Of a DNA stretch of 64,000 bases, positions 37,419-37,520 are shown one piece after another. Position 1 is the stretch's first letter. Each line of letters begins with the position of its first letter. This DNA is from Escherichia coli (GTDB taxonomy: Bacteria > Pseudomonadota > Gammaproteobacteria > Enterobacterales > Enterobacteriaceae), in NCBI RefSeq assembly GCF_045037415.1, contig NZ_CP173438.1; one strand, given 5' to 3'. The notes under the pieces are model-generated. The model did no database searches. It saw only the letters and a list, made by a program, of their open reading frames with translations, and was not told the DNA's origin. A program made the position numbers and the translations under genes.

Positions 37419-37432
37419 GCGTTGGAGTGTAG

Positions 37433-37448
37433 TAGACCAGTCGGTCTA
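37433..37448. promoter_or_regulatory. NemR operator palindrome in the nemR promoter
   Basis: tagaccagtcggtcta is a perfect 6-bp inverted repeat (TAGACC-N4-GGTCTA), 15-30 bp upstream of the nemR ATG. Confidence 0.6.
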
Positions 37449-37520
37449 GTGCAAGCAAAGTTGCTACTTTGGACATTAACAGCTTCAATAATGGTAATAA
37501 TCTTATCTGAGGAGGGCGAG

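Follow-up and report, generated by a model that had tools for sequence, protein, structure and literature searches.

The palindrome in the nemR core promoter of an Escherichia coli strain matches the known operator of the TetR-family repressor NemR

The closest described system is that of E. coli K-12, where the 16-mer upstream of nemR was reportedly named the "NemR box" by Umezawa in 2008 and is said to have been treated in papers by Umezawa et al. in 2008, Gray et al. in 2013 and Lee et al. in 2013. The exact limits of the NemR footprint are used here as given in secondary sources. According to the literature, the nemR operon is under repression by NemR itself, acting at an inverted-repeat operator (or NemR-binding site) within the nemR promoter, and point mutations in this operator derepress the nemR operon. 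NemR has also been described as a single-target factor, with its own promoter (nemRA-gloA) as the genomic SELEX target. Release of NemR by NEM, methylglyoxal and glyoxal, quinones and reactive chlorine species has been reported, with Cys21 and Cys116 as the sensing cysteines for electrophiles and Cys106 for chlorine, and the structure of the protein has been solved (PDB 4yze). NemR autoregulation through this palindrome was thus established between 2008 and 2013 and is recorded in EcoCyc and RegulonDB, and current knowledge of it is left unchanged by the present analysis.

The logic of the NemR operator resembles that of tetO/TetR and of the AltR operator, and it is nothing new in kind. The TetR proteins of Tn10 and Tn1721 are, like NemR, TetR-family dimers that use a palindrome of ~15-16 bp overlapping their own core promoter and that are released chemically; moreover, the Tn1721 tetR mRNA is leaderless, as is that of nemR. 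Unlike NemR, TetR is released by the non-covalent binding of tetracycline and has two operators between the divergent tetR and tetA genes, whereas NemR is released through covalent or redox changes of its cysteines and has a single box before a co-directional nemR-nemA operon. The AltR operator of Pantoea ananatis (CAATCTAC-N6-GTAGATTG; PMC13178969) serves a homolog of NemR that acts as an autorepressor at a perfect inverted repeat; this operator overlaps the -10 element, and derepression depends on a conserved cysteine, as in NemR (PMC13178969). AltR differs from NemR in half-site sequence and spacing, and it is thiosulfinate-specific, with no response to NEM or diamide (PMC13178969). The RutR box (TTGACCAnnTGGTCAA; Shimada 2007/2008) shares with the NemR box its 16-bp length, its GACC..GGTC core and its half-site spacing; by contrast, the outer positions are TA/TA in the NemR box and TT/AA in the RutR box, and conservation of the NemR box follows nemR.

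The DNA analyzed here, a stretch of 64 kb referred to as the window, is simply from another E. coli strain. Around the palindrome, 1.2 kb of sequence are 100% identical to E. coli strain SK1144, and the nemR locus was found in 5,425 of 5,426 complete E. coli genomes at 95-100% identity. In the RefSeq annotation of the matching region, the minus strand carries gloA, nemA and nemR, and the plus strand carries ydhL, ydhF and sodC. On the minus strand, nemR (36819..37418) encodes a TetR-family repressor of 199 amino acids, which carries the Pfam domains TetR_N and TetR_C_13 and matches PDB 4yze ("HTH-type transcriptional repressor NemR") over residues 1-199, its full length (E 4e-127). It is followed, after an intercistronic gap of 36 nt, by nemA (35685..36782), which encodes N-ethylmaleimide reductase of the Old Yellow Enzyme family and which is co-transcribed with nemR according to the literature, and then by gloA (35197..35604), encoding glyoxalase I, which is expressed by read-through from the nemRA promoter (Ozyamak 2013). 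The divergent neighbour on the plus strand, ydhL (37521..37760), has a GTG start and encodes a Cys-rich DUF1289 protein; its product shows a CxxxC...CxxC cysteine pattern. The assignment of nemR, nemA, gloA and the divergent ydhL in the preliminary description, which was made from the sequence alone, is therefore upheld by the Pfam domains, the PDB match and the RefSeq annotation.

Positions 37419-37520 are exactly the 102-bp spacer between the divergent nemR and ydhL genes. Within this spacer, at 37433-37448 and directly upstream of nemR, stands TAGACCAGTCGGTCTA, which reads TAGACC-AGTC-GGTCTA and is a perfect 6+6 inverted repeat around a non-palindromic 4-nt centre; the coordinates first given for this 16-bp repeat are right to the base. 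Its centre, at 37440.5, lies 22.5 bp 5' of the nemR ATG (37418, minus strand). On the nemR strand the palindrome reads TAGACCGACTGGTCTA and occupies -30 to -15 with respect to the nemR transcription start and ATG, and the same reverse complement is printed at -22.5 of ydhM (=nemR) in Shimada 2008, so that the comparison with published sites proposed earlier yields an identical sequence at an identical position upstream of nemR/ydhM. Compared with the NemR box of E. coli K-12, the 16-mer, its -22.5 position and the gene neighbourhood are the same, and nothing of substance is different. A full-text literature search for the 16-mer or for "NemR box" returned only the RutR paper. Since NemR binding at the operator in the nemR promoter has been published, the gel-shift or footprint check that had been proposed for this site has already been done by others. 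Taking together the published identity, the position in the promoter, the conservation described below and the literature, the probability that the palindrome serves as the operator of NemR, a TetR-family repressor, is about 0.93, and this finding is already known. The proposal of NemR autoregulation of the electrophile-responsive nemR-nemA-gloA operon likewise agrees with the published site, the literature and the conservation.

The symmetry of the NemR box is, by itself, weak evidence. The pattern TAGACC-N4-GGTCTA is single-copy in the 64-kb window, even with up to 2 mismatches allowed, and 0.00 exact copies are expected from dinucleotide shuffles, a comparison which is circular, as the motif was picked after being seen. 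Perfect 6-N4-6 palindromes of any sequence, on the other hand, number 27 in the window (~15.6 expected under an iid model), and in shuffled versions of the 102-bp spacer the probability of at least one such palindrome is 0.018, rising to 0.16 if any spacer of 0-10 is allowed; symmetry alone is therefore only suggestive. The abundance of such palindromes, a second of which lies only 23 bp away, might favour a chance inverted repeat or a structural element (a cruciform or RNA hairpin) that has no protein partner. Against this stand the conservation across phyla, in which the arm sequence is fixed and the centre variable, the published protein binding at the palindrome, and the position of the box upstream of both mapped transcription starts, and hence outside the transcripts that begin there. 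In an Rfam scan of 36700-37900, the sole match was a sub-threshold one to a eukaryotic snoRNA and no Rfam family was found, and the reading as an RNA element was dropped. The conservation pattern and the published binding refute a chance or structural origin, which is vanishingly improbable.

It is the conservation across species and within E. coli that is decisive in raising the palindrome above chance. Among 80 loci with NemR homologs, ranging from Escherichia (96% identity) to Burkholderia, Vibrio and Rhodobacteraceae (about 40%), the 16-bp box was found with up to 2 mismatches in 40, including all Enterobacterales among these loci, down to Yersinia, Serratia and Hafnia at ~50% protein identity. 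The arms are near-invariant, with G3, A4, C5, G12, T13 and C14 the same in all 40 boxes, and the central 4 nt take at least nine forms (GACT, GAAC, GATC, GAAT, GATT, AATC, GAGC, GTTC and AACC). Fixed arms around a free centre are the signature of a dimeric protein that reads two half-sites; a hairpin does not fit, because any complementary arms would serve for a hairpin, yet the arm sequence itself is fixed. In most of the 40 loci the box is centred 21.5-25.5 bp ahead of the start codon, and this position is fixed in the Enterobacteriaceae, Erwinia, Budvicia and Yersinia. Because a nemA homolog is found downstream in 37 of the 40 box-bearing loci whereas ydhL is found upstream in only 20, the box tracks nemR-nemA and not the divergent neighbour ydhL. 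Within E. coli, box and flanks are identical in five intact variants, which were sampled across the identity range of the 5,425 genomes with a match, as well as in a second E. coli locus (L002) and in E. albertii, and the SNPs in the E. coli and E. albertii spacers fall further toward ydhL. The locus can thus serve as a worked example of an operator identified by its conservation pattern, namely fixed arms, a free centre and a constant register with respect to the -35, -10 and ATG.

In a further 33 loci, from more distant homologs, a box of 15 bp is present, TAGAC-GAC(T/C)G-GTCTA, usually 27-55 bp before the gene, and only 9 of these 33 have a nemA-like gene downstream. The loci with the 15-bp box (L037-L081) show 39-49% identity and belong to Burkholderia, Vibrio, Photobacterium, Pseudomonas, Chitinibacter and others. 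Judged by its letters, the enterobacterial 16-mer reads as the 15-bp box with one extra C (TAGAC[C]GACTGGTCTA), an addition that would give it perfect symmetry. If true, a 16-bp box that is the symmetric derivative, by +1 bp, of TAGAC-GACYG-GTCTA would imply a change of half-site spacing during the evolution of this family.

Flanking elements were found by aligning the 40 box-bearing loci with the box as anchor. A TTG stands directly upstream of the box in 38 of 40 loci, as part of TTGCAC or TTGCAT, or of TTGACC in Yersinia and Serratia, and T-A-n-n-n-T begins 1 bp after the box (first T in 40/40, A in 38/40, last T in 38/40). In the window, the putative nemR -35 element is TTGCAC (37449..37454, minus strand; plus strand GTGCAA), which abuts the operator and is indicated by its conservation and its spacing to the mapped transcription start, and the -10 element is TACACT (37426..37431, minus strand; plus strand AGTGTA), a conserved TAnnnT that fits the mapped start. 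The transcription start itself is the A of the ATG (37418..37418, minus strand; Kim 2012). The box therefore lies within the nemR core promoter, at -30 to -15 of the Kim 2012 start and flanked by the -35 and the -10, with the cognate TetR-family regulator gene, nemR, directly downstream. We infer a promoter of the sigma-70 type in which 16 bp of the 17-bp spacer are taken up by the operator. A consensus scan of 37300-37650 for sigma-70 promoters (thresholds of at least 4/6 per hexamer and 9/12 overall) and terminators found none; TTGCAC and TACACT were missed because these hexamers match at only 3/6 and 4/6 positions, and the scan result was set aside in favour of the conservation and the mapped start.

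The anatomy of this promoter bears on the form of the nemR mRNA. Only 7 nt (CCAACGC) separate the nemR -10 from the ATG, there is no Shine-Dalgarno sequence, and the CCAACGC stretch is not conserved among the box-bearing loci; the gap between -10 and ATG consists of 6-8 non-conserved bases in most of the 40 loci and of 10 in four Serratia loci. This short gap and the missing Shine-Dalgarno sequence lead to the prediction of a leaderless mRNA, which is confirmed by Kim 2012: the nemR start at 1724047 is the first base of the gene, with a 5'UTR of 0 and 15 reads (Tables S1/S4), and the start of K. pneumoniae ydhM is likewise at the start codon, with a 5'UTR of 0 and 20 reads. Both genes are included in Table S4 of that study, which covers leaderless mRNAs, and nemR is one of only 18 leaderless E. 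coli mRNAs reported there. From the sequence and a published transcription start in two species (E. coli as well as K. pneumoniae), nemR mRNA is leaderless. A literature search of main texts for "leaderless" together with nemR or ydhM gave nothing relevant, and nemR is not among the five E. coli leaderless mRNAs of Romero 2014, possibly as the operon is repressed in unstressed cells. The "rbs nemR" mutation of Lyons 2011, which is given with no coordinates, is likewise hard to reconcile with a leaderless mRNA.

This arrangement suggests how repression and release could work. One NemR dimer on the two TAGACC half-sites would cover 16 of the 17 bp between TTGCAC and TACACT, and NemR bound in this way would be expected, judging from the anatomy of the promoter, to exclude sigma-70 RNA polymerase sterically; such exclusion would keep nemR-nemA off, and gloA as well, given its read-through transcription. 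Cysteine modification of NemR, according to the literature, lowers its affinity for DNA and derepresses the operon. Moreover, the leaderless nemR cistron is probably translated inefficiently compared with nemA, which would have its own ribosome-binding region in the 36-nt gap; because of this difference between the two cistrons, the ratio of repressor to enzyme would be low, in favour of the enzyme. The locus thus brings together a spacer-filling operator, a leaderless repressor mRNA in two genera, and the binding of RutR to the same bases with no known effect.

[quoted passage not shown] In Shimada 2008, TAGACCGACTGGTCTA at -22.5 of ydhM is among 20 in vivo RutR targets identified by ChIP-chip, and this 16-mer was reported there to match the RutR consensus TTGACCAnnTGGTCAA at 11 of 14 positions, including the key positions 4 and 13; the box in the window likewise has 3 mismatches over the 14 specified positions, with A4 and T13 matching. 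Four targets showed poor binding of RutR in EMSA, and the ydhM fragment is not one of them (Shimada 2008); RegulonDB lists nemR under RutR. RutR is therefore treated as a real binder of the NemR-box 16-mer that has no demonstrated function there, and its occupancy of the site in growing cells means that NemR is not the only protein to use it. One might go further and regard the palindrome as functionally a RutR operator, through which uracil-sensing RutR would control nemRA-gloA and tie the Rut pathway to the supply of NemA. In addition to the ChIP-chip peak with the exact 16-mer and the EMSA and RegulonDB data, a genetic link is in keeping with this reading, since mutations in nemR and in the nemR promoter suppress a rutE deletion and NemA can replace the RutE step; one such promoter mutation, which suppresses the loss of rutE, is predicted to abolish repression and so speaks for the NemR operator as well. 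However, the inner positions preferred by RutR, A7 and T10, vary among species, nemR homologs are accompanied by the box far outside the Enterobacteriaceae, and for most RutR sites no effect on transcripts could be measured (Shimada 2008). The expression of nemRA-gloA is moreover reported to be unaffected by RutR (review by Lee & Park 2017, which cites Lee 2013 and Umezawa 2008), and a regulatory role for RutR was marked down after that statement. Control by RutR is thus quite improbable, and a small door is left open to it by the genetics that connect nemR with the Rut pathway.

RutR-like boxes with up to 3 mismatches to TTGACCAnnTGGTCAA are more frequent in the window than expected (9 found, 3.07 expected, and 0 of 100 shuffles reached 9), with boxes at 1567, 10272, 22128, 35995, 38533, 46661, 53870 and 63636. 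This excess, which may be an effect of codon usage, echoes the finding of Shimada 2008 that RutR sites lie mostly in coding DNA.

On the other side of the spacer, a candidate promoter for ydhL is weakly indicated at 37461..37496 (plus strand), with a -35 of TTGCTA (37461-37466), a -10 of TTCAAT (37484-37489) and a start at 37496. This start corresponds to position 1723969 of Kim 2012, where it has only 2 reads and a 5'UTR of 25 nt before the GTG. In the alignment, ATTGAAG (the reverse complement of CTTCAAT) and GCAAc/g are conserved where ydhL is the neighbour. The nemR and candidate ydhL promoters stand back to back, with 6 bp between their -35 elements, and with respect to the candidate ydhL start the operator is centred at -55.5. 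An operator acting in both directions would also control the divergent ydhL-ydhF unit from -55.5; the product of ydhF, an aldo-keto reductase, is plausible as an electrophile-detoxifying reductase, and the SELEX table of Ishihama 2016 gives for NemR 2 sites and 4 regulation targets, of which 2 are known. However, the box lies outside the candidate ydhL core promoter and is kept in the same place in the 20 of 40 loci that have no ydhL neighbour; furthermore, the ydhL start rests on 2 reads, and later SELEX summaries describe NemR as the single-target regulator of nemRA-gloA. Bidirectional control is for these reasons unlikely.

A similarly doubtful extension would make the 16-mer a shared node, at which RutR and/or NemR act on ydhL-ydhF from -55.5, or on nemRA under nitrogen limitation that induces the Rut pathway. 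If true, it would add a Cys-rich DUF1289 protein and an aldo-keto reductase to the electrophile regulon and would tie this regulon to pyrimidine catabolism, whose RutE step can be replaced by NemA. The operator of NemR for its own operon remains the preferred reading of the palindrome.

The spacer holds a second perfect 6-N4-6 palindrome, CAAAGT-TGCT-ACTTTG, at 37456-37471, whose centre lies 23 bp from that of the NemR box and which overlaps the candidate ydhL -35 (TTGCTA, 37461-37466). To our knowledge, no binding protein has been described for this palindrome. It is invariant in the aligned E. coli and E. albertii sequences and absent from other genera, and the probability of two perfect 6-N4-6 palindromes in a shuffled 102-bp spacer is 5e-5.

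A 16-bp direct repeat, TGCA[G/A]GCAAAGTTGCT, was also observed at 37351-37366 and 37450-37465. The two copies, 15/16 identical and 99 bp apart, are found inside nemR, around the Cys21 codon, and in the spacer, where the copy overlaps both -35 elements. An old tandem duplication is unlikely, as the sequences diverge fully right after the repeat. In one of the 5,425 genomes (E. coli FDAARGOS_1258, NZ_CP069500.1; locus L082), a clean 99-bp deletion between the copies has taken out the start of nemR together with the -10, the operator and the larger part of the -35, and nemR is annotated there as a pseudogene by PGAP; this is a natural promoter deletion mediated by the 16-bp direct repeat.

Two other features of the surrounding DNA were noted. 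Inside nemR and antisense to it, CTGGTTCAGTGTTTGCT at 37131-37147 (+) is the weak intragenic sigma-54 ChIP site IA14 (Bonocora et al. 2015), which points toward ydhL, 363 bp away. Between grxD and rnt, at ~34126-34354, only short and incomplete annotated remnants ("ATP-dependent helicase" and "endonuclease") are found, at the place where most E. coli have the lhr helicase gene; the contiguous rnt-remnant-grxD order, that is, an lhr deletion, is found in 1,039 of 5,425 genomes (19%), and lhr is present at this place in the others.
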